64,000 nt of DNA from Thermodesulfobacteriota bacterium (GTDB lineage: Bacteria > Desulfobacterota > Desulfobacteria > Desulfobacterales > C00003060): NCBI GenBank assembly GCA_034189385.1, contig JAXHVD010000002.1:64001-128000 (forward strand), given 5' to 3'. A model generated the notes under the pieces. The model was not told where the DNA came from and ran no database searches. It saw only the letters and a program-made list of their open reading frames with translations. The translations under genes and the position numbers were made by a program. Within the stretch, counting starts at the first letter, position 1; each line of letters begins with the position of its first letter. Positions 41,266-57,246 of the stretch are shown one piece after another.

Positions 41266-44200
41266 ATGGGCCTTAAAAGAATCAAAAGGTTCCTAGCGAG
41301 AAGAGGAATAACGGGCCTTTACTTTGGAAAGAGTCTGAAGACAGTCCCAGAAGGCTCGCTGGTTCTTTTTCCCTATGAGCCCGACGTGTTGAGCTGCGGG
41401 ATAACCGGTGTCCTGTCCTTTAAGGGAAGGCCTGCCGGAGCCCATGGGCTTCCCATTCAGGATCTCGAGGATAAGATAGAGGCCCTGTCCAAGGTTGCAG
41501 GGCAGAGGCTTGAAGAAAAAGGGCCCCTGCAAGAGAAAGATGATCTTGGCACAACAGAGCTCATAGGTGAGACAAAACACCTCTGCCAGAAGCTTAGGGA
41601 GCATCGGGTTTTCTACGAAGTCTTCTCCCGTCGAGCCTATCAAAAACGACTGACCGACCTCTGTGAGAAGCTTGAGGCGGTCGTGGAGTCTGAAGACATG
41701 GAACGGGCTCGGAGGATAGGACGCCTGGCCGCGGAAGAATGTGAGGCCCTCGCGCAACGAATAACGGAATTGCGGGACATTCTGTGGTCTTTACGGCACG
41801 AGATCATTGAGAACATTGAAAAGATAACTGCCCTTGGACGATTTGACCAGTATGACTGTGACCCCCTCTGTGTAGGGCTCCTGAAGGAGGTCAACATTAT
41901 ATTTAACAACCTTGATCGACTTGAAGTCAGAGGCAGGGATTCTGCCGGGCTCTCTCTCCTTTTCGTCATGGACGAGGCCGCGTTCACTGGGTTTCGACAA
42001 GCATTAAAAGAGGCATCACTGCTTGGTGAGTTTGAGGAAAGACAAGGGAACCCGGTCTTGTTGAATCGCAGCATCGTAACGAATAAGCAGGACACTGGTG
42101 TCTCTGTGATCTTTACCTACAAGGTTGCTGCCGAGGTAGGAAACCTGGGGGATAATGTCCGGTACTTGAGAAATCAGGTGAGAGATGATCTGGTGCTTCA
42201 GCACTGCATGCGGTGCAGTCATGTGTATCACAGTGCCGTGGCCCACACCCGTTGGGCCTCAGTCGGTGAAATCAGCGAGGCCAATTGCCATCCCGTTGAC
42301 AGCTGTCCCAGCGATTCGCCTAGGACCATTCACGTTTGCCTTAATGGAGATATTGATAACTACCAGAGTCTTCGGCAAGATCTTGAAAGAGAAACGGGCA
42401 AGTCTATTCCAGAAGAGATCACCACGGACACGAAGATTATCCCCCTTCAGATAGAGAAGTATCTCAACAAAGGGGAGACCCTTGAGGGATCTTTTCGCCT
42501 TGCTGTCAGCGATTTTGAGGGTTCCCATGCCATTGCGATGCATAGCGATCTGGCTCCGGGCCAGGTTTTTCTGGCGCAAAGAGGAAGCGGGCAGGCTATA
42601 TTTGTGGGTTTGGCGGAAGGTCATTATGTGCCTGCTTCTGAAATATATGGGTTGGTTGAAGAGACCTCTTGTTATGTGAAGATGGATGGCGAGAAAGTGG
42701 TGGAAGGGATATCTGGCAAGACCCAGGGTCAGATATTTGTCCTGGATGGGAATTCTGAAGGGGGGCTCAGTGGCCTGAGGGCCATGTATTATGACGGAAC
42801 GCCTGTTGAGCTTTCTGGGGATGACGTCAAAGAGACGGAAATCACGCCCAGAGATATTGATCGTCAGCATTATCCCCACTATTTCTTGAAGGAGGTCTCA
42901 GAATCCCCCCGGTCGGTGGAGCAGACCATTGAAGGGCGTGTGGCCATCTTAGAAGAAGGTGGGAGGCAACATCCCCAGATATTGCTGGACACCACAGTCA
43001 TTCCTGCTCATCTGGAAGCGGATTTCAGGGAACATAAGATCCGCAGGGTGTTTTTTATGGGCCAGGGCACAGCAGGGGTGGCCGCTTCGGCCTGTGCAGT
43101 GTTTTTGAGAGAGTACTTGAGCCGAACGGAGATTCGGGTGGCCTCCTTTAAGGCCTCTGAATTCAGTGCCTTTGTCTTGGAAGGTCGTCTTGATGACGCT
43201 CTGGTGGTGGCCATCACACAGTCGGGAACAACCACCGATACCAATCGGGCCATTGACATGGCCAGAGAACGGGGGGCCTGCACGTTGGCTATCGTGAACA
43301 GGCGAGATTCTGACATCACCTTTAAGGTGGATGGGGTGCTTTATACAAGTAGTGGGAGAGACATTGAAATGTCTGTAGCTTCCACCAAGGCTTACTATTC
43401 TCAGATTGTGGCGGGCAGCATCTTAGGTCTGAAACTAGGCCAATTGGCGGGGAGTTTGACGGAAGAGTTCATCCTGGCAGAGATAGAGCACCTTTGGAAG
43501 TTGCCTTCGTCTATGAGGAAAGTACTGGAAAGACATACGGACATCGGCGAGTCAGCCGAGAGATTTGCCGTTACAAAGACATATTGGGCTATTGTGGGTA
43601 GCGGTCCCAACAAGGTCTCTGCAGATGAGATCAGGATAAAGCTGAGTGAGCTTTGTTACAAGACCATTTCTTCAGACGTGGTTGAAGACAAGAAACACAT
43701 TGACCTGTCTTCCGAACCCCTGATTTTTGTCTGTGCAGCCGGCAACCGCGAGGATGTAGTCAGTGATATCGTCAAGGACACCGCGATCTTTAAGGCCCAC
43801 CAAGCAGTGCCCATAGTGGTGGCCACAGAAGGTGAACACCGATTTGATCCTTACGCCGATGCGGTAATCTCCGTGCCTGACACAGAGAGCCGGTTCGCGC
43901 CCATCATAAACACCTTGGCCGGTCACCTCTGGGGATACTATGCGGCCCTGGCGATTAACAAAGAATCTCGATATCTGGTGCATTTCCGTGAAGAGATTCG
44001 TGAACATATTCAGGCCTCTACGGGAAAGGGCCTGGATGTATACGAGATCGTGCTGGATGAAGGTTTCAGAGAGAAAGCGGCCGAGTTTTACGGGGTGTTC
44101 AAGGAGCGGATAAGGGAGAATCGTTACGCCACGGCCATGGCCATACGCACGGCATCGGACCTGACGCTGTTGCTGAAGTACCTGGCCGGAAGACTCCCTA

Positions 44201-44955
44201 TCTCAGATTTTGAGTTTGACTTTGGAACCAAAGGGACAGCACCGAATATGTTGAGGACCTTTTTTGAATGCATAGGAAAGATCGTCAACGAATTGGTGCG
44301 ACCTATTGATGCTATTAAGCACCAGGCCAAGACGGTCACCGTGGGAACAAGCCGGATCTCAGAGAAGGTAGAGGGCCTTCTTTTTAAAGCCCTTGAAAAT
44401 CAAGGGTTCAGCAAGAACCAAATTACAACAAGTAATGTCTTGGTCTTAAAGCGTCTACAGGAGGTTCTGAGCGAAATAGCAGGGACGACCCTCTACAAGG
44501 TAGCAGGGCTTAATATTTTGGGAGAGCCCGTTGCAGATTCGACCATACACCTGTTAAAGAAAGAGGGAAGTGCTGAGGCCCTTGTTTCCAGAGTTGAGAC
44601 CGACAACAGACTGCGGGGTACCAAACGGATCATCGTCAAGAACGGAAACATCTTTATTGGCAAGGGAAGAATGGACAACCGGAGTATTCTTGCCGTCCCA
44701 ATTATGTCAACGGGTACCAAGGTCGATCACCTCTTGTTGTTCAATGTAGCATTTAAGGCACAGGTTGAGCTTCAGAAGAAGGTAGATGCCTTAGGGGGCA
44801 AATATCACCACATACGAAACATTGTGGAGGAAACAAGTCTTGCCTGGAAGGATCAGTTTTTGGAATTACTTGATGTGGAGCAACTTTTTGGGATGTCTGC
44901 TGAGAAGATCTCAGAGGCGATTGTTTCCAGTTTGAATAACAGACAAGTATCGTAG
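41266..44955 (+). CDS. glmS: Expanded GlmS-like glutamine-fructose-6-phosphate aminotransferase (GATase + 2 SIS + extra domains)
   Basis: CGI, RGRDSAG, AHTRWA, NGDIDN, TQSGTT.DT, VASTKAY, AKTVT; 1229 aa. Confidence 0.75.
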   Translation: MGLKRIKRFLARRGITGLYFGKSLKTVPEGSLVLFPYEPDVLSCGITGVLSFKGRPAGAHGLPIQDLEDKIEALSKVAGQRLEEKGPLQEKDDLGTTELIGETKHLCQKLREHRVFYEVFSRRAYQKRLTDLCEKLEAVVESEDMERARRIGRLAAEECEALAQRITELRDILWSLRHEIIENIEKITALGRFDQYDCDPLCVGLLKEVNIIFNNLDRLEVRGRDSAGLSLLFVMDEAAFTGFRQALKEASLLGEFEERQGNPVLLNRSIVTNKQDTGVSVIFTYKVAAEVGNLGDNVRYLRNQVRDDLVLQHCMRCSHVYHSAVAHTRWASVGEISEANCHPVDSCPSDSPRTIHVCLNGDIDNYQSLRQDLERETGKSIPEEITTDTKIIPLQIEKYLNKGETLEGSFRLAVSDFEGSHAIAMHSDLAPGQVFLAQRGSGQAIFVGLAEGHYVPASEIYGLVEETSCYVKMDGEKVVEGISGKTQGQIFVLDGNSEGGLSGLRAMYYDGTPVELSGDDVKETEITPRDIDRQHYPHYFLKEVSESPRSVEQTIEGRVAILEEGGRQHPQILLDTTVIPAHLEADFREHKIRRVFFMGQGTAGVAASACAVFLREYLSRTEIRVASFKASEFSAFVLEGRLDDALVVAITQSGTTTDTNRAIDMARERGACTLAIVNRRDSDITFKVDGVLYTSSGRDIEMSVASTKAYYSQIVAGSILGLKLGQLAGSLTEEFILAEIEHLWKLPSSMRKVLERHTDIGESAERFAVTKTYWAIVGSGPNKVSADEIRIKLSELCYKTISSDVVEDKKHIDLSSEPLIFVCAAGNREDVVSDIVKDTAIFKAHQAVPIVVATEGEHRFDPYADAVISVPDTESRFAPIINTLAGHLWGYYAALAINKESRYLVHFREEIREHIQASTGKGLDVYEIVLDEGFREKAAEFYGVFKERIRENRYATAMAIRTASDLTLLLKYLAGRLPISDFEFDFGTKGTAPNMLRTFFECIGKIVNELVRPIDAIKHQAKTVTVGTSRISEKVEGLLFKALENQGFSKNQITTSNVLVLKRLQEVLSEIAGTTLYKVAGLNILGEPVADSTIHLLKKEGSAEALVSRVETDNRLRGTKRIIVKNGNIFIGKGRMDNRSILAVPIMSTGTKVDHLLLFNVAFKAQVELQKKVDALGGKYHHIRNIVEETSLAWKDQFLELLDVEQLFGMSAEKISEAIVSSLNNRQVS

Positions 44956-46960: not shown

Positions 46961-47467
46961 TTACCTGTACGGGCTCATTTCTCTACAGATGCGGCCGCGA
47001 CAGGTGTGTTCCCCACAGGTCACGGTGCCTCCACAGGTAGCTCCTCCGCTGCCCGCACAGGTGGCCCCGCAGGTAATGTTACCAAAACAGGTTTCGCTCC
47101 CGGCGCAAGTGGTCGTGCCGCGACAGGTAGCTCCTCCGCTGCCCGCACAGGTCACGGCTGTCGTGGCGAACTGTTCCCAGCCGTGATGAACCTCCGCGTC
47201 GGCGAGCTCTATGACTCTTTTGGGCCCGGCGGTGCTGAGGACATTTTCGTTGATATAGGCACCCCGCGGGTCGTAAACCTCCCCATCTAGGGCGATTCTT
47301 GAGCTGCTTAAATCGGACAGGCTCTTGTCCAGCGATGCAAGAAAAAGAGGTGATGAAGAATCCGCATCGCTTGCCGCCCCCGCTCCAATAGACAGAACAG
47401 GAAAAACAAAGAGGCCCGCGACTGCCAGGAGCCAGACGACAAGAAACGATCTCAAGCCCTTTTTCAT
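46961..47467 (-). CDS. Secreted 168-aa protein with C-terminal Thr-Cys repeat core (precursor-peptide-like)
   Basis: RBS GAGGAGG before ATG at 47467; Sec-type signal (MKKGLR, hydrophobic stretch, AGA); 10 Cys, 9 of them in TC dipeptides, in the last about 65 aa. Confidence 0.8.
   Translation of the reverse strand: MKKGLRSFLVVWLLAVAGLFVFPVLSIGAGAASDADSSSPLFLASLDKSLSDLSSSRIALDGEVYDPRGAYINENVLSTAGPKRVIELADAEVHHGWEQFATTAVTCAGSGGATCRGTTTCAGSETCFGNITCGATCAGSGGATCGGTVTCGEHTCRGRICREMSPYR
47033..47152. repeat. Exact 30-bp direct repeat within the Thr-Cys core
   Basis: ACAGGTAGCTCCTCCGCTGCCCGCACAGGT at 47033-47062 and 47123-47152 (encodes TCAGSGGATC). Confidence 0.95.
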
Positions 47468-47537
47468 TTTCTCTTCCTCCTCGGTTGTGGTGCTTGCCCA
47501 AGACAACAATCTTGAAATCACCTTAGAAAATAACATA

Positions 47538-47587
47538 AAAGTAAATATAATTATATTTACTTTAATATAGTTGAGTCCCTATGTCAA
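47538..47587 (-). promoter_or_regulatory. Sigma70 promoter overlapped by a perfect 26-bp palindrome
   Basis: Minus strand TTGACA-17 bp-TAAAGT; palindrome AAAGTAAATATAATTATATTTACTTT at 47538-47563. Confidence 0.7.
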
Positions 47588-47874
47588 GTTTTTTTGAGAA
47601 ATTGTTGGAAGGGTGGAAAGATTTGAAGGCCGTTGATCCGGCAGCCAGCGAAATTCTCTGGGGTTGGCTCCAGCGAAATAGCCAAAAAATAGTTTAATAT
47701 CAACAGATTATATGATATCCCTGGGCTTCTGACAAGAGATTTGACTGAGCCCTCATGGTGGCACCTTGACTCTCAATGAGCCGGGGGGCATCTGGTTTTC
47801 AAGTTCTTGAGGGACCTATTTTGTCCGCCGCGCAAAGGGGATTCGGGGTTCTGCAGGCGTCATCCCGTACAGAT

Positions 47875-50502
47875 TCAGTCACCCACAAGATCGTTCAGGA
47901 TCTTGAAAACGACCCTATATCTGTTCTGCTGGTGCCTGTTCGGGATGGAGCTGGCGTTTCCCAGGCCAACCCCCGAAAATGCCTTAGACATGGTGCAAAC
48001 CCATACCTTTCCTGTGCCAAAGGAGACTTCGGTGAGGCACGGAGCCCAGTGTCTCTCATGGTCCCCCCCATGGTCTTGTGCTGGCGCATACCATAAGCGG
48101 GGCTGTCCGCCCTTTACCTGGCAGATGCCATGGGCGGGGAAGGCAACACTCCGTTCGCTATTTGTCTCTTCAGAGAAGATATATGTGGCATCATCTGCGT
48201 CGCTATTGCCCTCTGAGGTGGTGTAGAGGATTTCTACGGAGAAAGGTTCTAGAAGCTGCCAGGCAAATGAGTCTTCAGCCCTGTCCGACGAATCCAGGAT
48301 TAAGGCCTTGCCACCCTGTGAAATATAGTCTTGAAAAATGGCCAGCTCCTTCTCGGAGAATTTTTTGTGGGGATTGATGATGATGATAGGATCTCTGTCC
48401 TTTTCAAGAGTGCGAACAAAGGAGGGTCTTACTTGCGGCACGATTCCGAGTCTCTGGGCAGAGACGAAAAAGGCACCGTAGTGGAGGGTATGGGTATTAC
48501 TCTTTTCCGGGAACCAGAAACGGTTTGCCAGAAAGATATCGGAGTGCTCACAGTCAAAGGTAATCTTCTGGAAATCTCTGAGCGCCGCAGGTTGTTTGTA
48601 GGACCATCGATGGATCAGGTCCACGTAGTAAGATGAGATGATCACTGTCATCATGAGGCATACAACAATGCTGCTATGATGCCTTCTCAACTCTTCAGAA
48701 GAAGGACTCAGAAACACCGCTAAAATGGCAAGGATACCAGATAGGAGTAACCCATACGGTTTCACATGGGCCCACCATGTGTTGGAGCGATTTAGCCACA
48801 TCAGGCTGTCCAGAAGCAGTTCAGGCTTGCCCTGATAAAACATGCTAAAATTGGACCACACTGTGCTGTCAGTGAAACAAAGGACCCGGCCCTTGCCTTC
48901 AAATGCTCCGGCCAACTGAAGAAAAAGACCAAACTCTCGGTCCTCGTAATGGGCCTCGTCAGGAAAAAAATGCTTGTTCTTATAGTCTGCTAGTCGAGTC
49001 ATCATGCCATAACCTATAATAGGTTTTTCATGCCAGACACGGGCGCTGAGCGTGCATCCAGTGGCGAACAAAATTTCTGGGGTGTGTTTTCCCACGGGAT
49101 GGCCCAGGGTTTTGGGCTGCCTGTAAACCGAAAACTGGCCGTAAATATCCCACTGGCCATTCTTGTCAAAGGACAGACCAAAGCGTTGAGCAAGATCGTT
49201 GAGGTGGGTCGACGTTCCAAAGACATCTGTGTGATCCCCAACGAGAAATAGTCCTCCACCATCATGTACAAAGGCCTCTAATGTTTCTAACTCTTCTCTT
49301 TCATACCTCCGGGTAGGGCACTTGAGGATGATGACATCCTGGTCTGCCAATAGGGCTGATCTTATCTCTTCTGTGTTCACTTTCACCTGATAGTAGTGCT
49401 CAAGAAATGTTCGTAAGCAGTAGTAGTTGTAGGTGGAAGCCATGCCATACCAGTTGGTATCAAAGGGCCGCATGGTCTTTTCCCACTGGCTGTGACTCTC
49501 GTCAATAAGCACCCTCCCGGCGTTCTTCGTTCCGGGATCGGTGAGTGATGATCCCATGATCCCCGCCATGATGGCCATGCAGACCAAGCCGGTCCAGCCA
49601 AGTACCCGTTTCGAAAGGCCCGCCCAGCCCAGACGTACGCGTCCAGTCCAGTTGACCTTCTTTGTCGACAAGGCCAGTCCGACTGCCAAAGGGACGAAAC
49701 TCAGTAGGCCATACACCGCATTCCACATCATGGTGATAGTGGCCTTGTCTGCCCAACCAAGAAAAATCCATAGGGACACAAGATATCGTGCCAACAGATA
49801 AGAGGCCCACAAAAAGAGAATCCTCAGCCAGCCTTTCCACGGCTTGTGTTGCACCATCAGCAACGAGCATAGACTGACACCGATGAGAATGAAAAGCCCC
49901 GGCAAGAGTCCTAAGGCATCTGCTGTGACCTGTATGATTCTGTAATCACCGTTGTAGTTGGCAACAAGGGTATGACCGTTAACAGAACAGGTTGTGCCCA
50001 GGAAGGTGAAAACCGTGGCAGCCAATGAAGCAAGCCAAGAGAGGCCTCGGTCATGACAGCCCAAGTAATACCAAAGGGGGACCAGGAGGCTTTCCACGGT
50101 GAGCAAAAGACCAGAGACCAGAAGCCCTGGGACTAGGGACCGGATAAAGACGCTGTTCCGGCCGCAGCAGAAAAGGGCCAACCCAGAGACAAGAATCCAG
50201 GGGCCAAGGGAGTGCGGATAGGGCATAAGCAGGCCATAAAGGATAAATGGCACAAGGATCCAGAGATAGTCCCATGATATGTCGAGCTGAATATGGCGCA
50301 GGGATATTATGAAAAGCGTCGCACCGCTGACAGCCAAGACATAGCCGAACCATGCTTCATACGTTGCCAGCTTGTAAGTGCTCACATAAACACCAGACCA
50401 ACAGGTCCAGGCGAAGCCCACACAGACGACTCCAAGCCAAAAGAGGACCTTTTTCAACATGTCTTCTCTACTGGTCTGTTTCATAGATTCGCTAATCTTC
50501 AT
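47875..50502 (-). CDS. Polytopic membrane protein: exosortase-like TM region plus two GIFT/DUF4350-like domains
   Basis: About 10 TM helices, then RVLIDESH...FVHDGGGLFLVGDH...GRVLCFTDS, 2 TM, then ITFDCEH...YISQGGKALIL. Confidence 0.7.
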   Translation of the reverse strand: MKISESMKQTSREDMLKKVLFWLGVVCVGFAWTCWSGVYVSTYKLATYEAWFGYVLAVSGATLFIISLRHIQLDISWDYLWILVPFILYGLLMPYPHSLGPWILVSGLALFCCGRNSVFIRSLVPGLLVSGLLLTVESLLVPLWYYLGCHDRGLSWLASLAATVFTFLGTTCSVNGHTLVANYNGDYRIIQVTADALGLLPGLFILIGVSLCSLLMVQHKPWKGWLRILFLWASYLLARYLVSLWIFLGWADKATITMMWNAVYGLLSFVPLAVGLALSTKKVNWTGRVRLGWAGLSKRVLGWTGLVCMAIMAGIMGSSLTDPGTKNAGRVLIDESHSQWEKTMRPFDTNWYGMASTYNYYCLRTFLEHYYQVKVNTEEIRSALLADQDVIILKCPTRRYEREELETLEAFVHDGGGLFLVGDHTDVFGTSTHLNDLAQRFGLSFDKNGQWDIYGQFSVYRQPKTLGHPVGKHTPEILFATGCTLSARVWHEKPIIGYGMMTRLADYKNKHFFPDEAHYEDREFGLFLQLAGAFEGKGRVLCFTDSTVWSNFSMFYQGKPELLLDSLMWLNRSNTWWAHVKPYGLLLSGILAILAVFLSPSSEELRRHHSSIVVCLMMTVIISSYYVDLIHRWSYKQPAALRDFQKITFDCEHSDIFLANRFWFPEKSNTHTLHYGAFFVSAQRLGIVPQVRPSFVRTLEKDRDPIIIINPHKKFSEKELAIFQDYISQGGKALILDSSDRAEDSFAWQLLEPFSVEILYTTSEGNSDADDATYIFSEETNSERSVAFPAHGICQVKGGQPRLWYAPAQDHGGDHERHWAPCLTEVSFGTGKVWVCTMSKAFSGVGLGNASSIPNRHQQNRYRVVFKILNDLVGD

Positions 50503-52954
50503 CTATTGTTCCAACAAGTTTTCTTAGAAAGTAGATGTTTGCCGAGCTTGCCCAATCCAGTTTTTCCAATCGGCCATTGAAGAAGAGGCCGTAGTCTGAA
50601 ATTGCCGTCAATGTGCCTTTTCCAACCTTGCGCTCCACGACAACAGGGTATTTCTCCTTAAATGCCGTACAAAGGATCTCTTCCTCTTTTAGCCCATCCA
50701 CTGCCATTGGATTGGCATTGTACATGAGGATCCCTTCACTGTTGTTTTCAGGGGCAACGGCCCCCAGTGGCGTTGATAGTATTTCCAGTCCATATGATTT
50801 GAGAAAATCCTTTGTCCCATGAGCACAGCGGTCCCCTGACAGCATGACAAGTTGTGCCCCCCTTTTCATGAATTCATCAAGCATACGGCATTCATCCTTG
50901 GAGTATGGTTTTGTCGTGGCCATGCTCATCATTAAGAGGGATTTTTCCAGAGCTCTCTCGTTGAATTGCTTCCAAGCCATGGGGATAAAGCCATTGCGTA
51001 CGAGGCTGTCTACCAAATATGTGTCTCCATCATCCTTGGCATAGCCTTCATGATCGCAAAGGGACATATGGGCATGATCGAGGTATGCAATAGGCCCGGT
51101 GTAGTCATGGTCTTTGTAGCATAAGTGCAACGCCCATTCTCCCATGATAATAGCTGCACTAACGGACAGGATCACCACAGTGACTATGGCAATAGACTGT
51201 TTTTTCCATGGTCCCACCCACAGCGCAAGACCCAGAACCAAGACGAGCACCAAGCCCCAGGGAAGGCCAACGGATTTTCCGTGAACCGCCCACCTGAAAA
51301 GATCAGAGACGTAGCGGTGGCAATAGGGTAGGGAGCCCATCTGTAGCAAGGCTGTGTCTCCAAAGACAATGACTTTGCCGTCTTCCAGTTTAGACTCTGC
51401 TGCCAAAACAATATCGCCAAGGGGTTCGTCTAGGTCGTATATTCGATCGCCGAGGTAGTTCTCTGATAAGGCGTTGGCCCTATCCCCGTCGTCTGAGAAG
51501 CCGTATCTGGCAATAAGAAAAGGGGTCGCTCTATGATTTAAGAGGCGCAATGAGGCGCCCACTGATACTCCCATGCCATCTTTGTCCCAGTCTTTTCTGT
51601 TTATGGGGTGTGGGCGCGTCAAGAAGGCATCGTTCCAGTAGTTGTTTAGAAAATGAGCAGAATCGAAGTTAATGCGGATGGGAACCTCTGACAGTAACTC
51701 ATTAGATCCTTTCATCAAGCCAGACATATCTGTATGATCGGCGAACACCATCAGTGTGCCGCCTTGTCTGACATAGTCATTTAGAATGGAATAGTCTTCT
51801 TCTTTCCATTTCTCGTTGAAGTTCATGACCACAAAGACATCTGCATTTGTTAACATTGCCTTTGATACTTGCCTTGTCAGTTTGACACGAAATCCGAAGC
51901 TTTCAAGGAAATCGGGAAGGACGCAGAAAAGCCCCGGTCTGTTGGTGGTACCAAGCTGTTCAAAGTTTGGTTTGTTCCAGGTCGTGATGCCTCCTTGATA
52001 GAGGACTAGACGACCACTATAGTCTCCTGCCGGCCACTGAGATGTCACATAGGAAACGGTAACCAACAACAACCAGAGGGCTGCAGTTCCAAGGATCATC
52101 TTTTTGCTCGCTCTGTGGGATTTCACTGCCTGCCCTGCGTCAGGTCTTGACGTGCCATGAAGAAAAAAATGGATGATCAAACACTCCATGACAAAGAGTA
52201 TGGGTGTAAAATCCAGGGCGGTGAACCCCTGTTCGGCCATGACGTCCCACGACATGGCTGCTGATCTTCGTTGCGTCATAACATAGGCCAACCATGCCAG
52301 GGATAGAGCCCCAAAATGGTTTACAGACAGCAGCACCACACTGACAACGACACCCCTTTTCCATAATTGGCGGAGCCAAGGGGAAATGCGAATCCACGTA
52401 TAGATGGTGCAGATCGCTAATCCCCACATGCCCATGGCAGTGGGGCCCAATTTCAGAGAAAGGCCAAAGATCCTACCCAGAAGATAGGACGCCTTCCTTG
52501 CGTATCCCTCTATGAAGAACCAGGCCGTTGGAGACAATTCTGCGGCAAGGCTCAATACAAAGTAGGTAAACAGCGTCCACATGATGGCTAGGCGAGCACC
52601 TCTGTGTCTGGGGGCAGCCCTTGGAATTGAAAGGATTAAGGTAAGTAGTGCCAGAAGATATGCCTGGGCCACAATAGGCTTGGTTTGTGGTTCAAGCCGA
52701 GACAAGACGAACAAGAAAGACAAGACAATGAATAGCCAGGACAGTCTTTGGTATGGGGCCTCTTTATCCATCTGACTGGCAGTGACCATTGCCACTGCCA
52801 GGAGAGAGAACAAGACAAGAAGTGCATTTGCCAGGGGCGAAACTCTGAGAATGCTTCCGGATGTGAGCAACACAGCAAAGGAGCTTAACCCAAATAGGAG
52901 TGTATTCGTCACTGCACGTCTCCAGAAGTCACATTGATCAGAAGAGGTCTGCAT
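50492..52954 (-). CDS. Paralogous polytopic membrane protein with two GIFT/DUF4350-like domains
   Basis: About 9 TM, then YVRQGGTLMVFADHTD...GKVIVFGD, 2 TM, then AYLDHAH...GKGTLTAISD; overlaps the next gene by 11 nt. Confidence 0.7.
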   Translation of the reverse strand: MQTSSDQCDFWRRAVTNTLLFGLSSFAVLLTSGSILRVSPLANALLVLFSLLAVAMVTASQMDKEAPYQRLSWLFIVLSFLFVLSRLEPQTKPIVAQAYLLALLTLILSIPRAAPRHRGARLAIMWTLFTYFVLSLAAELSPTAWFFIEGYARKASYLLGRIFGLSLKLGPTAMGMWGLAICTIYTWIRISPWLRQLWKRGVVVSVVLLSVNHFGALSLAWLAYVMTQRRSAAMSWDVMAEQGFTALDFTPILFVMECLIIHFFLHGTSRPDAGQAVKSHRASKKMILGTAALWLLLVTVSYVTSQWPAGDYSGRLVLYQGGITTWNKPNFEQLGTTNRPGLFCVLPDFLESFGFRVKLTRQVSKAMLTNADVFVVMNFNEKWKEEDYSILNDYVRQGGTLMVFADHTDMSGLMKGSNELLSEVPIRINFDSAHFLNNYWNDAFLTRPHPINRKDWDKDGMGVSVGASLRLLNHRATPFLIARYGFSDDGDRANALSENYLGDRIYDLDEPLGDIVLAAESKLEDGKVIVFGDTALLQMGSLPYCHRYVSDLFRWAVHGKSVGLPWGLVLVLVLGLALWVGPWKKQSIAIVTVVILSVSAAIIMGEWALHLCYKDHDYTGPIAYLDHAHMSLCDHEGYAKDDGDTYLVDSLVRNGFIPMAWKQFNERALEKSLLMMSMATTKPYSKDECRMLDEFMKRGAQLVMLSGDRCAHGTKDFLKSYGLEILSTPLGAVAPENNSEGILMYNANPMAVDGLKEEEILCTAFKEKYPVVVERKVGKGTLTAISDYGLFFNGRLEKLDWASSANIYFLRKLVGTIDED

Positions 52955-53127
52955 GAGCTGACCGTGGATTTCTGTTCTCTGCTATCATAAATGGTGGCAT
53001 GTTGCCAACACAGGGATTTCAAGGGGCCTTTAAACATGTTATGATACTGCGTCGCAAACAGGGCCTGAAAAGTGATTTGCTCCGGTGCCCATGTTCAAAT
53101 CAGTGCAAAAGGAGGACACCCCTGGCC

Positions 53128-53466
53128 ATGCAGGCACAAGAAATCAAAGCCATATCCAGCGAAAAGTACCTGGGTGAGATCATAGACTCGGGCTGGTCCA
53201 TGGTTGGTCCTAGAAAGGATCCAGACAAGAATTTGCGTTCAGCGAAGAACTTCTTTAAACGGGACATTGCCTTCGTCCCAGAACATGTCTTGAAGGCCGA
53301 CGGTTTCAAGATCGTTCCGCCCAGCAGTTTCACGCGGGGCCATCAGCTCATGTACAAGGACGACGGGAAACTGATCCGCTACACCAAGAGCCAGTACACG
53401 CTTACTTCTGGGGAATCTGAGGTCCCTCTCTATGTTTTTTTAAGGGAGGATGAAACGGACCTGTAG
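53128..53466 (+). CDS. Hypothetical protein (112 aa)
   Basis: AGGAGG upstream of ATG at 53128; protein-like composition. Confidence 0.6.
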   Translation: MQAQEIKAISSEKYLGEIIDSGWSMVGPRKDPDKNLRSAKNFFKRDIAFVPEHVLKADGFKIVPPSSFTRGHQLMYKDDGKLIRYTKSQYTLTSGESEVPLYVFLREDETDL

Positions 53467-53558: not shown

Positions 53559-54443
53559 ATGCCGCTAGACATAAGAGACGCCCCATACCTGAATCACGAT
53601 GATATATTGGACCTGAATTTCATCAAGGACCCAGGAGTGTATGTTTTCAGGAGGCATTATCGCCAAGGATTGCGCTCCCATATCATGGAGATATTGAGCC
53701 CCCAGGCAGTGGCAAACGAAACACGGGGGGTCTATTTAGAGGGATCGATGCGATATCCAAAGGCTGAGCCCTCTAAGATGTTAAGGTTGTTTAGAGCCAG
53801 ATTCAACAGCCTCAAAGAGGCTAAAGAAGAGTTGACAAGGGTTAAACTCATAATGGCCTACCTTGCTCCTGATCATCTGGGAAGGCCTGAAGAATTCCTC
53901 GTCGATTATTCGCTATCTGGCCAAGGGGAGATCCTTCTTTGCGGTCTCCAGGAATATGTGCACGGTGAGGTCCTGGATCCTTGGAGTCTCCTGAATAGGA
54001 ACCATCTGGTGTCCATGCTAAACGACATGGGCTGTGATGGGGCCGGCGAGGCAGGCAGAGAAGGCGACCAATGGGCCCATTGCGTGCGGGAAAAGGCGGC
54101 CAGCCTTGTACAAAAGCTCAAAGAGATGATCATGGAGGCCCATCACGTACCGGATCTTGCGGGCATAGGAAATCTGATACTTACCCGGAACGGAGACATC
54201 AAACTTGTGGACATCAACAACATCTCCAGGGTTTTTTTTGACACGACTATCAGTCTCGATGACAGGGGGTATCCGGTCTGCGACAAATCGATTCAGGCCC
54301 TCTCCCTTCTTGAGAAGAAACTCCTTGGGAGGTCTTTAGGTAAAGATCACCCTATCTATGGGGTATTCCTTGATCCTGAAAGGATGAAAAACGTTGACGC
54401 GGCAGAAAATGCCTTCTACCTTTCTATGGAGACAAAGAAGTAA
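53559..54443 (+). CDS. Hypothetical protein with protein-kinase-like fold motifs
   Basis: LQEYVHGEVL hinge, PDLAGIGNL catalytic-loop-like, IKLVD(INN) DFG-like. Confidence 0.6.
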   Translation: MPLDIRDAPYLNHDDILDLNFIKDPGVYVFRRHYRQGLRSHIMEILSPQAVANETRGVYLEGSMRYPKAEPSKMLRLFRARFNSLKEAKEELTRVKLIMAYLAPDHLGRPEEFLVDYSLSGQGEILLCGLQEYVHGEVLDPWSLLNRNHLVSMLNDMGCDGAGEAGREGDQWAHCVREKAASLVQKLKEMIMEAHHVPDLAGIGNLILTRNGDIKLVDINNISRVFFDTTISLDDRGYPVCDKSIQALSLLEKKLLGRSLGKDHPIYGVFLDPERMKNVDAAENAFYLSMETKK

Positions 54444-54594: not shown

Positions 54595-57246
54595 CTAGAG
54601 AAGGGCGTGTAACTTCCGCAATACCCCTTCGTATTCGTCTCTGCGGAAGCAGAAGTGCAGTTCCGAGAACCTTTCCCGCAAGGCCTTGACCTGATCGGTG
54701 ACATGGGCATTGTTCATGACCACGTCATGAATCAGGCCTGCCAGGGTCTGAAAATCTTCTTCCCGCATACCGAAGCGTGTCATTTCCGAAACGCCCATCC
54801 TGAGCGCCCCTGATGCAGTAAACCCCTCTTCATCTGTGTTCGCCTGGTAGTTGCAGATGATGTTGTTCGCTTCCAGGCGCCTTGCCATTTCAGGGCCGTG
54901 ACTGTAACCTACATCTATGACTACCTGGTGGGTCTCCGTAAAGTCTATGGCCGGATCACCTGCCACATCCAGCCCTGCATCCCTTAGGGCCCGGGCAAAG
55001 GCCTTGGCATTTGAAATGACCTGGGGTTGGTATTGGCCCTTAAAGTAATTCATCTCATACGTGGCCATGAGAAGCCCTACTACAGTGCCGAGGTGGTGGT
55101 TGGAGACAGATCCAGGAAAGGCACGGCGAAGGAGGGACTCCCACAGTTCATATTCCTCTTCGTTTTCTTTAAATCGACTACCCACAACACCACGTTGGGT
55201 CCCGAAAAAAGTTTTGTGGGTCGACCCAGTGACCAGATCAGCACCTTCCACAAAGGGTTCCTGAAAGTGAGGACCAAGGAGCCCCAGTACATGGGCCATG
55301 TCGTACATGACCATGGCACGGATGCCTTGCCTGTCCAGGAACTGGCGAATCTCCGCCACCGGCTCCTTGTGAAGGACCATGCTCTTTCCAAATATGATCA
55401 ATTCAGGTCGGTACTCCTCTATCAATTCCAGTGTGGCTGGGACATCGGTTTTAAAAGGGTTGTCAGGCAATACAGGGAACTTCACAACGGCCGGACGCTC
55501 TGTGCGGGGATTGCGGGCCACGAAGTCCTTAAGAGCTCCCATGGGCTGAGCACTCAGGTGCCCCCCCTTGCCGATGTGACTATTCATGACGTGGTGAATA
55601 CGCCGCGGCTCCACCTTTCGGTCCGTACGATTGATATAATCCACCATGGCGCTGAAGACGGCCGTGTTGGCCATCTGCCCGCTTACTAGGCGCAATTCCA
55701 CATTTTCGCAGCCCAGGTATGCCAGCATTTCCTGTTCCAACATCCGCTCGACCTCGTCGATGAAACCGGTCCCCTGGTAATAGAAGATCTCGGCATCATA
55801 GAAGGCCTTGGCCTTTTTGTGCTCGGCATAACGAAAGGCCGGGTCCATGACCGAGACCAACCGCGCCATAGGAGAAGGCGTCATCTCAGAGGGGATGAGA
55901 TTGATACACTCCCGTTGTCTCCAGAGGGTGTTTTCCAAGGTTTTTCCCAGCAGCCTTTCCACTTTGGCAGATGTATCCCCTGTGGGAAGCTCCTTGGCAG
56001 GCAGCTCGAAGTCGAAGAGGATGGGACGGACATAGGGCGGCGCATCTCCACGCATGTGAAAGGGCACCACCACGGCGTCTACCAACTTGCCCCTGATTTC
56101 TATGGTCAGCTTATCCTCTTCGATGATGTCACTGTCTAAGTATCCCAGACAGATGGAGCGGAGCTGACGTTGGTCTGTCTGCGCAGATTCAAGTCCCTCG
56201 CCCTCCACAGTCCACATGGGAACCATGGTACCGCTGGTGACGTAACCGACGTGCTTGTCCTGTTTAAAGACCTTGGCGCCTTCACGGGCGATCCCTCGGC
56301 CTGACACGGCGATGGGCTGGCTGATACGGGGAAGATCTTGGTTAAGGGAATAGTCGCGCCTCATGATTCTCTTAAAGGCCTCGTGCTGCCTGGTGAGTTC
56401 CTTGCGACCTAAGAACTCCCCCTTAAGGGGGGAGAGACTTACAGCAAACTTGGCAAGAGGACAGGCAAATATGGGGATTTCTTTGCCCTCCGGGTCTTCA
56501 CCCAATTCATGTCCGTAAAGCGGAAGGGCCGCCTCTAGCCTGAGCGTATCCCTGGCGCCCAGTCCGATGGGAGTCGCCCCTTTTGACAGGATCAGGTCCC
56601 ACAGCATGGGACCGTCTGCTCGGTCGGCGAAGAGCTCAAAGCAGATCGGCTCCCCTGTATAGCCGGTGCGGGAGACCTTGACCGTGGCACCTGCGATGGT
56701 CACCATGCCTACAGTGTTTCGCATGGGTTCCGGCAGTTGGCCGGACTCCACGATCTCTTGCATCACGTGACGGGACATGGGCCCCTGGAAGGCCAGCATG
56801 GCGATTTCCTTGGTGCGATCAATCAGTTCAACGTCGTCGAACTCCTTTAAGAGCGGCTGGAAGTGGTTCCAGGCCTTCTCACGGTTGGAGCCGTTTACCA
56901 CCAGAAGATATTCGTCCTCCACAAAGCGATAGAGGTAGGCGTCGTCCACAGCGCCGCCCGTTTCGTTGGGAATCATGGTATACTGAGCGCCCGTCTCCCT
57001 GATGTCCAGGGCTTCGGCGTTATTGGTCAAGACATGTTGAAGAAACCTCAATGCCCCATCCCCGCGGACGATGAATCGGCCCATGTGGGAAACGTCAAAA
57101 AGCCCTCCGCTCTTGCGCGTGGCAAGATGCTCCTCCACGATACCGCTAGGATAGAAAATGGGCATTTCCCAGCCCACAAATTCTACTATCTTGGCGCCCA
57201 AGGCCACGTGTTGGTCATAGAAAACGGTTCTTAGAAGTTCGCTCAT
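54595..57246 (-). CDS. gcvT: Fused glycine cleavage T protein and serine hydroxymethyltransferase (GcvT-GlyA)
   Basis: N-half: FDVSHMG, RTGYTGE, GLGARDTLRLEA. C-half: NLIPSE, GGHLS, YDMAH, STHKT (PLP Lys), VSNHH, LRMG. Confidence 0.9.
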   Translation of the reverse strand: MSELLRTVFYDQHVALGAKIVEFVGWEMPIFYPSGIVEEHLATRKSGGLFDVSHMGRFIVRGDGALRFLQHVLTNNAEALDIRETGAQYTMIPNETGGAVDDAYLYRFVEDEYLLVVNGSNREKAWNHFQPLLKEFDDVELIDRTKEIAMLAFQGPMSRHVMQEIVESGQLPEPMRNTVGMVTIAGATVKVSRTGYTGEPICFELFADRADGPMLWDLILSKGATPIGLGARDTLRLEAALPLYGHELGEDPEGKEIPIFACPLAKFAVSLSPLKGEFLGRKELTRQHEAFKRIMRRDYSLNQDLPRISQPIAVSGRGIAREGAKVFKQDKHVGYVTSGTMVPMWTVEGEGLESAQTDQRQLRSICLGYLDSDIIEEDKLTIEIRGKLVDAVVVPFHMRGDAPPYVRPILFDFELPAKELPTGDTSAKVERLLGKTLENTLWRQRECINLIPSEMTPSPMARLVSVMDPAFRYAEHKKAKAFYDAEIFYYQGTGFIDEVERMLEQEMLAYLGCENVELRLVSGQMANTAVFSAMVDYINRTDRKVEPRRIHHVMNSHIGKGGHLSAQPMGALKDFVARNPRTERPAVVKFPVLPDNPFKTDVPATLELIEEYRPELIIFGKSMVLHKEPVAEIRQFLDRQGIRAMVMYDMAHVLGLLGPHFQEPFVEGADLVTGSTHKTFFGTQRGVVGSRFKENEEEYELWESLLRRAFPGSVSNHHLGTVVGLLMATYEMNYFKGQYQPQVISNAKAFARALRDAGLDVAGDPAIDFTETHQVVIDVGYSHGPEMARRLEANNIICNYQANTDEEGFTASGALRMGVSEMTRFGMREEDFQTLAGLIHDVVMNNAHVTDQVKALRERFSELHFCFRRDEYEGVLRKLHALL

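Follow-up and report, generated by a model that had tools for sequence, protein, structure and literature searches.

To our knowledge, all lanthionine-forming enzymes are cytoplasmic and use ATP, GTP, or glutamyl-tRNA. The lanthipeptide synthetases (LanB/LanC, LanM, LanKC, and LanL) act on precursors composed of a leader and a core in which Ser or Thr lies N-terminal to Cys at a ratio of about 1:1 and at ring-sized spacing, and one enzyme set serves variable cores, sometimes in trans. GIFT/DUF4350 proteins include IFT52, OST48/Wbp1, site-1 protease, GldG, and arCOG01314, the last of which, according to the accessible part of its description, has a signal peptide, a single C-terminal helix, and MoxR/vWA neighbors (PMC5898192). 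In the bufferin and oxazolin (MNIO) systems, a Cys-rich precursor carries a Sec signal peptide (PMC11626156, accessible part), and exosortases and archaeosortases (PF09721) have a Cys-His-Arg catalytic triad (PMC9263693, accessible part). Here we describe a locus in a 64,000-nucleotide (nt) stretch of contig JAXHVD010000002.1 from a Thermodesulfobacteriota bacterium (the window), at which two paralogous membrane proteins, A and B, are encoded beside an exported Cys-rich protein, C, referred to as their client. A, B, and an exported client form a real and widespread three-gene system found across many bacteria and some archaea. We propose, with the chances judged to be even, that A-B may be a membrane enzyme that staples each Thr or Ser of the client to a downstream Cys after export.

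When compared with these systems, A-B fell outside the lanthipeptide, MNIO, exosortase, and arCOG01314 systems, and membership of the GIFT domain family was the only one found. The clients resemble lanthipeptide precursors in the leader-core layout, in the register of Ser/Thr and Cys, and in the use of one enzyme set for variable cores, including a second client on another contig in G013. However, A and B match GIFT-type models only and no Lan family, they are polytopic with outward GIFT domains, a Sec-type signal precedes the client leader, and the cores, with up to 157 Cys, sit inside surface proteins; no other gene family, and no transporter or peptidase, is conserved across the loci. The Sec signal peptide on a Cys-rich precursor is shared with the bufferins and oxazolins, but no MNIO (DUF692) or DUF2063 partner was found in the five genes scanned and there was no conserved extra neighbor. 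In the accessible part of their description, bufferins have 4 to 6 Cys in described cases and a signal that is dispensable for modification (PMC11626156), whereas the clients here have a separate leader and a Thr/Ser register. With the exosortases, A-B shares a weak membrane-domain likeness, an outward beta insertion, an Arg in B, and dedicated enzyme-client gene pairs, but it lacks the catalytic Cys and His, has two fused GIFT domains per protein, forms an obligate paralogue pair, and has its client tag at the N terminus instead of a C-terminal motif, helix, and basic tail. The GIFT/DUF4350 proteins match A and B by profile (above cut-off) and by flavodoxin/GATase-like fold; A and B differ from arCOG01314 in having 10 to 11 helices, a pair of domains in each chain, invariant residues of catalytic type, and clients rich in Cys, and neither MoxR nor vWA was a conserved member of the top neighbor clusters of A-B.

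Homologues of B were estimated at about 720 stretches in a species-genome collection and about 1200 in a metagenome collection, of which 80 loci were kept from each. Named B records came from deltaproteobacteria, Bacteroidota, KSB1, Eisenbacteria, Chloroflexota, Planctomycetota, Verrucomicrobia, Bacillota, and Thermoplasmatota, and 1,361 clusters were obtained at 50% identity (E up to 1e-30; A types, B types, and fragments together). Occurrence was patchy: of 61 kin genomes 3 carried B, as did 1 of 36 further genomes from the genus. Around pyrG, 15 loci of the genus all lacked C, B, A, and the gcv-side genes over a distance of 1.5 kb, and metagenome locus L089 had a gene order identical to that of the window. 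A lay directly upstream of B in 124 of the 132 loci with room for it (28 of 160 being too short upstream), and all five genomes tested from among those in which A did not adjoin B (four with room, one without) had a near-full-length A elsewhere. In the organism's own genome, tblastn gave no second match to A, B, or C. Clustering of 1126 other neighbors revealed no conserved fourth gene; the commonest family, a LamG/DUF7901 surface protein that itself bears a tract, was found in 10 of 78 locus groups. At L036:6494-9885, a transposase-like open reading frame (ORF) interrupts gene A, and no client was found nearby.

An earlier note on this DNA, made from the sequence alone, had as its main prediction that such membrane pairs usually have a neighboring exported Cys-rich gene. 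This was borne out. Groups were defined by clustering B at 60%, a flank of at least 2 kb was required, and every group was scored for the leader with a model built without it; on this basis, 55 of 67 loci and 37 of 41 groups had a leader or a Thr/Ser-Cys tract no more than 5 kb from the pair. The nearest client was less than 1 kb away in 84 of 99 loci. Chance neighborhood was rejected as an explanation because the background was scarce in the organism's own genome and the leader tracked B in kin genomes. The 4.13-Mb genome held no other leader match and one other tract match in 32,646 ORFs, and gene C was the only one of 55,847 reading frames with more than four TC in 70 residues. In the 61 kin genomes, leaders in real signal-peptide, Cys-rich ORFs occurred in the same three genomes that carry B, two being unlinked to the pair, and the remaining four leader matches were frames of 19 to 74 amino acids (aa) with neither signal nor Cys tract.

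Gene C has nine TC units, ten Cys, and one N-terminal hydrophobic stretch, in agreement with the small secreted protein with a TC core that had been described. The plain spacer of about 70 aa that had been placed between them, however, holds a conserved SPLF leader, located just behind the signal peptide, in which S is invariant and P is conserved at 90% or more in 65 rows. Among 54 clients, the signal features, which were judged by hydropathy and motif rules and not by a trained predictor, included an AxA-like motif in 38 and a twin-Arg-like motif in 2. Lengths of the 54 dereplicated tract clients vary between 113 and 1300 aa, and SLH, CWB2, choline-binding, or T9SS-type modules form the C-terminal end of several; eight further leader genes without a tract of at least four Cys were excluded from the grammar counts below. 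These sizes and surface modules suggest not just a small-peptide pathway but the modification of exported and surface proteins. Both had been overlooked earlier, as had the core types other than T-C and the offset Thr/Cys pattern. A search of the ESM Atlas gave no usable match for the client.

Four kinds of core were distinguished (T-C, T-x-C-P, G-S-x-C, and T-x7-C), and 18% of tract residues were Thr and 15% Cys. In the TC clients, a Thr or Ser stood directly before 1384 of the 1462 internal Cys, whereas this was so for just 8 of the 32 last Cys. A spare Thr, usually after Pro or Ala, was present 4 to 10 residues ahead of the first Cys in 34 of 38 tracts; among spacer windows the figure was 14 of 56. 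For a further set of 26 tracts picked by hand, the values were 938 of 1007 for internal Cys, 5 of 26 for last Cys, and 12 of 18 for the spare Thr. Gene C has both ends, with the spare Thr before its first TC and a last Cys without Thr (Table 1), and the same ends were seen in L089 and L212. In the T-x7-C class, which is non-overlapping, 210 of 257 intervals had a single Thr with the next Cys 8 residues further on, and the distance from this Thr back to the previous Cys varied. Overall, a distinct Thr/Ser 5 to 9 residues upstream could be matched for 2088 of 2144 Cys versus 1654 ± 12 in shuffles, suggesting a rule common to all core classes of one Thr/Ser 5 to 9 residues upstream per Cys. A check for selenocysteine found no in-frame TGA inside the tract in 160 loci.

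The Cys content also raised the question of metal, and the earlier note had included metal loading among its options. Under that explanation the tract would be a metal-thiolate binder and A-B would load or exchange the metal, for which the conserved Asp/His/Glu clusters of A and B could serve as ligands, and exported Cys-rich bufferins bind copper (PMC11626156, accessible part). We regard it as very unlikely: the CxxC spacing typified 25 intervals versus 871 at six and 281 at four, no metal transporter or metal regulator family was found among the conserved neighbors of A-B, and the Thr offset and register would be left unexplained.

Several clients departed from the common architecture. At L144:4364-8356, an RHS-repeat protein adjoining the pair contains a segment resembling SPLF in its interior, and its G-S-x-C tract is located where the payload usually lies; at L077:17199-20978 an archaeal protein has a TC tract followed directly by Hint (intein-like) domains. 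Clients of L026, L032, L034, L037, L055, L101, L129, and L143 end in a T-[TSD]-W-G-x-[IVL]-K tail, which resembles a lineage-specific C-terminal sorting signal. Arrays of two to four client paralogues were found at L013:13039-19062, L010, L047, and L073, with near-identical leader and tract and differing C-terminal domains; the L013 array includes broken copies. The Thermoplasmata loci (L061, L063, L067, L071, L158, and L161) encode leader-bearing proteins of about 220 aa, often as tandem pairs after B, with only two or three Cys flanking a C-terminal membrane helix, most of which, by eye, keep a Thr/Ser 5 to 7 residues upstream.

The paralogy of A and B proposed in the earlier note was supported by 21% identity over 469 aa (E 9e-15) and by HHalign probabilities of 99.9 for domain 1 against domain 1 and 99.3 for domain 2 against domain 2. 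The shared layout it described also stood, although its count of 9 to 10 transmembrane helices was slightly high, the hydropathy scan giving 8 (A) and 9 (B) ahead of domain 1 and 2 between the domains. Pfam DUF4350 and IFT52_GIFT matched both proteins above cut-off, with two DUF4350/GIFT matches in each, and the borders were placed at about aa 315-558 and 622-814 in A and about aa 327-573 and 643-873 in B. The predicted structures were confident, with a pLDDT of 92 for B and 91 for A. Lys/Arg-rich loops alternate in the A and B alignments such that both GIFT domains would be outside, and both soluble domains are thus predicted to face outward, in keeping with the location outside the cytoplasm that had been suggested.

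The previously noticed motifs GG.L...[GA]DHTD and G.V..F.D were found in both proteins; of the D..H starts, DESH (B334-337) and DHAH (A626-629) are conserved, and DCEH is less so, its H653 being kept in 86 of 135 rows. Domain 1 of both proteins retains [DE]-H-T and D-[ST] motifs, and that of B further conserves D-E-x-H-S-x-W-E, Y-N-Y, K394, and S550. The invariant residues of B include E341, Y358, K394, E404, H424, N435, D545, S546, T547, S550, and R684, and a conserved polar cluster of B is located at the outer membrane face; C483 is kept in 127 of 135 rows. The invariant polar residues of A are H407, D431, E510, D514, D533, T534, D787, and N806, with D488 also conserved alongside D431, E510, and D514, and domain 2 of A retains D626, H629, D787, E797, and N806. 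Since so many polar residues are invariant despite only 22 to 30% identity, catalysis by A and B is suggested.

Fold searches of A and B were filled by the GIFT domains and barely covered the membrane domain. The matches were IFT52 (Z 21.9, root mean square deviation [RMSD] 2.7 over 208 residues), site-1 protease, OST48/Wbp1 of the oligosaccharyltransferase (Z 18.4, RMSD 3.3, 220 aligned), glycosidase accessory domains, and GATase1/ThuA-like folds, among which homoserine O-acetyltransferase (Z 10.6) is a fold precedent only. A sequence search of solved structures returned IFT52 alone (E 0.06 and 0.14), and HHalign against 14 PfpI proteins gave no significant register. In the B model, D/E423-H424 follows the fourth strand, a position that may correspond to the Cys-nucleophile elbow of class I glutamine amidotransferase/DJ-1 hydrolases. 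The nearness of OST48/Wbp1 and of glycosidase accessory domains, the polar cluster of B at the outer membrane face, and the abundance of Thr in the tract would all suit a pair that decorates the tract without cross-links: Thr/Ser (or Cys) would receive a sugar, acyl, or phospho group donated by a lipid, and disulfides would join the Cys in pairs. This is unlikely in our judgment, as it explains neither the one-to-one offset at the tract ends nor the fixed Thr-to-next-Cys distance, and no glycosyltransferase or flippase family was conserved among the neighbors of A-B.

The membrane domains had earlier been called exosortase-like. A weak profile likeness was present, in the right register (HHalign E 0.084 for B and 0.013 for A, with probabilities of 0.7% and 3%), the membrane region of B carries an outward beta insertion, and the best ESM Atlas feature matches were exosortase clusters at 0.79, a lead only; PF09721 gave no Pfam match in A or B. 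The catalytic Cys and His were absent. In the weak alignment, the Cys column contained Cys in none of the 135 B rows and none of the 91 A rows, the B family consensus at the exosortase E-A-C-S-G site being T-W-E-K-L-G with Lys in this column in most B rows, and the His column aligned to Trp/Asn; the Arg was retained in B only (R239 in 134 of 135). The membrane domain of A and B is read as a lipid- or helix-binding scaffold and not as a transpeptidase. If the membrane domains were instead a transpeptidase of the exosortase type, cutting the client close to its leader and attaching it to lipid (the anchoring option of the earlier note), the profile and feature matches and R239 could be cited in favor, but the nucleophile would be missing. 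In addition, the clients bring their own anchors (SLH, CWB2, choline-binding, and T9SS-type tails), a C-terminal helix with a basic tail, as in a sorting signal, was found in 1 of 50 complete tract clients, and true exosortases are encoded elsewhere in the genome, so that this role has hardly any probability. One true exosortase match, which is in two pieces and contains a TGA, lies about 30 kb past the window end (G000:C12:157446-158053).

The sequences show that A and B go together, that clients accompany them, and that these clients have the leader and the grammar of the tract. Among the options of the earlier note, the best supported is that A-B modifies the client, and the modification that we favor, at even confidence, is a lanthionine-type thioether between each Thr/Ser and a downstream Cys. 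In this mechanism, the client would cross Sec unfolded, and the leader behind the signal peptide would then dock on the A-B complex. Because macrocycles are poor Sec substrates (PMC11626156, accessible part), the rings should form after export, where the A-B domains are predicted to lie. The Thr/Ser hydroxyl would be activated without ATP, most plausibly when a membrane lipid bound by the exosortase-like helices of B (conserved H152, E/D195, K196, R239, and W260) donates a phosphoryl or acyl group. Such a lipid-derived donor is proposed by analogy with other membrane transferases, and this activation step is a guess that we consider rather improbable. The GIFT D-H-T and D-S/T-T clusters would then perform either elimination to dehydrobutyrine and Cys addition or a direct displacement, linking Thr/Ser to a Cys 5 to 9 residues downstream. 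Applied to gene C, the scheme predicts that ten rings overlap along the tract (T102-C107, T106-C115 ... T155-C161) and that the mass falls by 10 x 18 Da; a rigid stalk or an exported, stapled peptide would result. The broader claim, which we rate slightly below an even chance, is that A-B founds a group of extracytoplasmic, ATP-independent lanthionine synthetases that combine GIFT domains with a repurposed exosortase scaffold, form up to about 150 overlapping Thr-Cys rings, and provide the first catalytic role for GIFT.

A number of observations weigh against stapling. With regard to the clients, 33 of 88 tract genes lacked a leader score in the leave-out test, some of them being truncated or divergent; the planctomycete and Desulfonema magnum clients have no SP[LIVMA][FY] before the tract; and 12 of 67 complete loci had no nearby client. 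The loci are moreover related and not independent, so that the statistics overstate. With regard to the tract, the Thr of the TC class is fixed beside the Cys to which linkage is not proposed, and downstream Thr/Ser matching was also high (1888 of 2144); since the tracts are periodic, direction is given only by the ends and by the 8-residue class. Of these, the "last Cys" may belong to a following domain under the 16-residue gap rule, and in 20 of 32 tracts the last Cys was also followed by a Thr at a distance of 4 to 10 residues. Several Cys of the G045 client (L213) have no Thr/Ser upstream. Finally, among the fold matches we know of no protein whose GIFT domain is catalytic, and outside the membrane there would be no access to ATP or glutamyl-tRNA, for which reasons the hydroxyl activation remains a guess.

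Two further points against stapling are the slight excess of even Cys counts (29 of 50 complete clients, 16 of 24 short clients, and 10 Cys in gene C) and, in D. magnum, an SPLF leader fused to a DsbA-like thioredoxin (CVHC) directly after B (L081:12998-13750). Both would instead favor A-B as a folding or redox station that holds leader-tagged Cys-rich proteins at the membrane during disulfide formation or isomerization, with the Thr register being structural. The conserved C483 of B could be added to this, and GIFT domains are usually described as scaffolds in the accessible part of PMC5898192. Yet the Cys count was odd in 21 of the 50 complete clients, a thioredoxin-type neighbor was found by motif in just 1 of 160 loci, the lone Cys of B is no CxxC pair, and the many invariant Asp, Glu, His, Lys, Ser, and Thr residues of A and B are typical of active sites; a redox station is accordingly decidedly unlikely. 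The SPLF leader may serve to dock helpers in addition to substrates. At L081, the DsbA-like gene is followed by a leaderless T-x-C client of 1449 aa with a GEVED domain.

At the window locus itself, the three co-oriented minus-strand ORFs that had been reported were confirmed (Table 1), with A and B overlapping by 11 nt. The ORF list gives gene C as 191 aa from 47536; the alternative 168-aa start at 47467 is preceded by a purine-rich GAGGAGGAAG tract, and the N termini of homologues L089, L009, and L212 agree with it. The B-C gap region contained 10 sigma-70-like sites versus a shuffled mean of 5.7 (standard deviation 2.2), and from this consensus match gene C may have its own promoter.

Table 1. 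Features of the A-B-C locus, in window coordinates
Feature	Position	Strand	Description
Gene A	50492..52954	minus	820 aa; ~8 membrane helices, GIFT/DUF4350 domain 1, 2 helices, GIFT domain 2
Gene B	47875..50502	minus	875 aa; ~9 membrane helices, GIFT domain 1, 2 helices, GIFT domain 2
Gene C (client/precursor)	46961..47467	minus	168 aa; homologues L089, L090, L009, L212
Predicted Sec-type signal peptide of C	47375..47467	minus	aa 1 to ~31; hydrophobic stretch aa 9-27; cleavage site inferred
Leader helix of C, S39-P-L-F-x3-L (SPLF motif)	47306..47353	minus	Conserved; common to clients across phyla
Thr-Cys tract of C, T102-C161	46985..47164	minus	Nine TC units, spare T102/T103 first, terminal GRIC
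Two sigma-70-like promoter matches (11/12, 10/12)	47559..47735	minus	407-nt B-C gap; consensus match only

That no Lan, YcaO, MNIO, or radical SAM gene is adjacent, as had been stated, held true for the neighbors of the three genes, which are pyrG and gcv genes (named from their translations) and two hypothetical plus-strand genes (52999-53466 and 53559-54443) that have no Pfam or NCBIfam match and are 80 to 82% kept in L089. The latter encodes 294 aa with D-L-A-G-x-G-N and K-L-V-D-I-N motifs, which we take to recall a kinase fold. Two more genes of the window were of note, both named from their translations. On the plus strand between kdsB and pyrG (41266-44955), a GlmS-like amidotransferase/SIS protein is unusually long (1229 aa), with N- and C-terminal extensions, and on the minus strand (54595-57246) an 883-aa fusion joins a GcvT-like to a serine hydroxymethyltransferase-like domain and has 93% identity in L089.

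No description of an A-B-client system was found in the literature searched, which included few subscription papers and excluded supplements. Judged by its sequences, it appears to be categorically new as a system, with the chemistry being proposed. If stapling is correct, secreted proteins would be cross-linked outside the cell by a membrane enzyme, which would represent new chemistry and a new route to ring-stapled proteins, and would offer a leader-programmable tool for protein stabilization. It would also give a testable function to the GIFT domains, which are uncharacterized in IFT52, OST48, site-1 protease, and GldG. Even with other chemistry, A-B and its clients would be a widespread three-gene system with named substrates and a clear mass spectrometry test.

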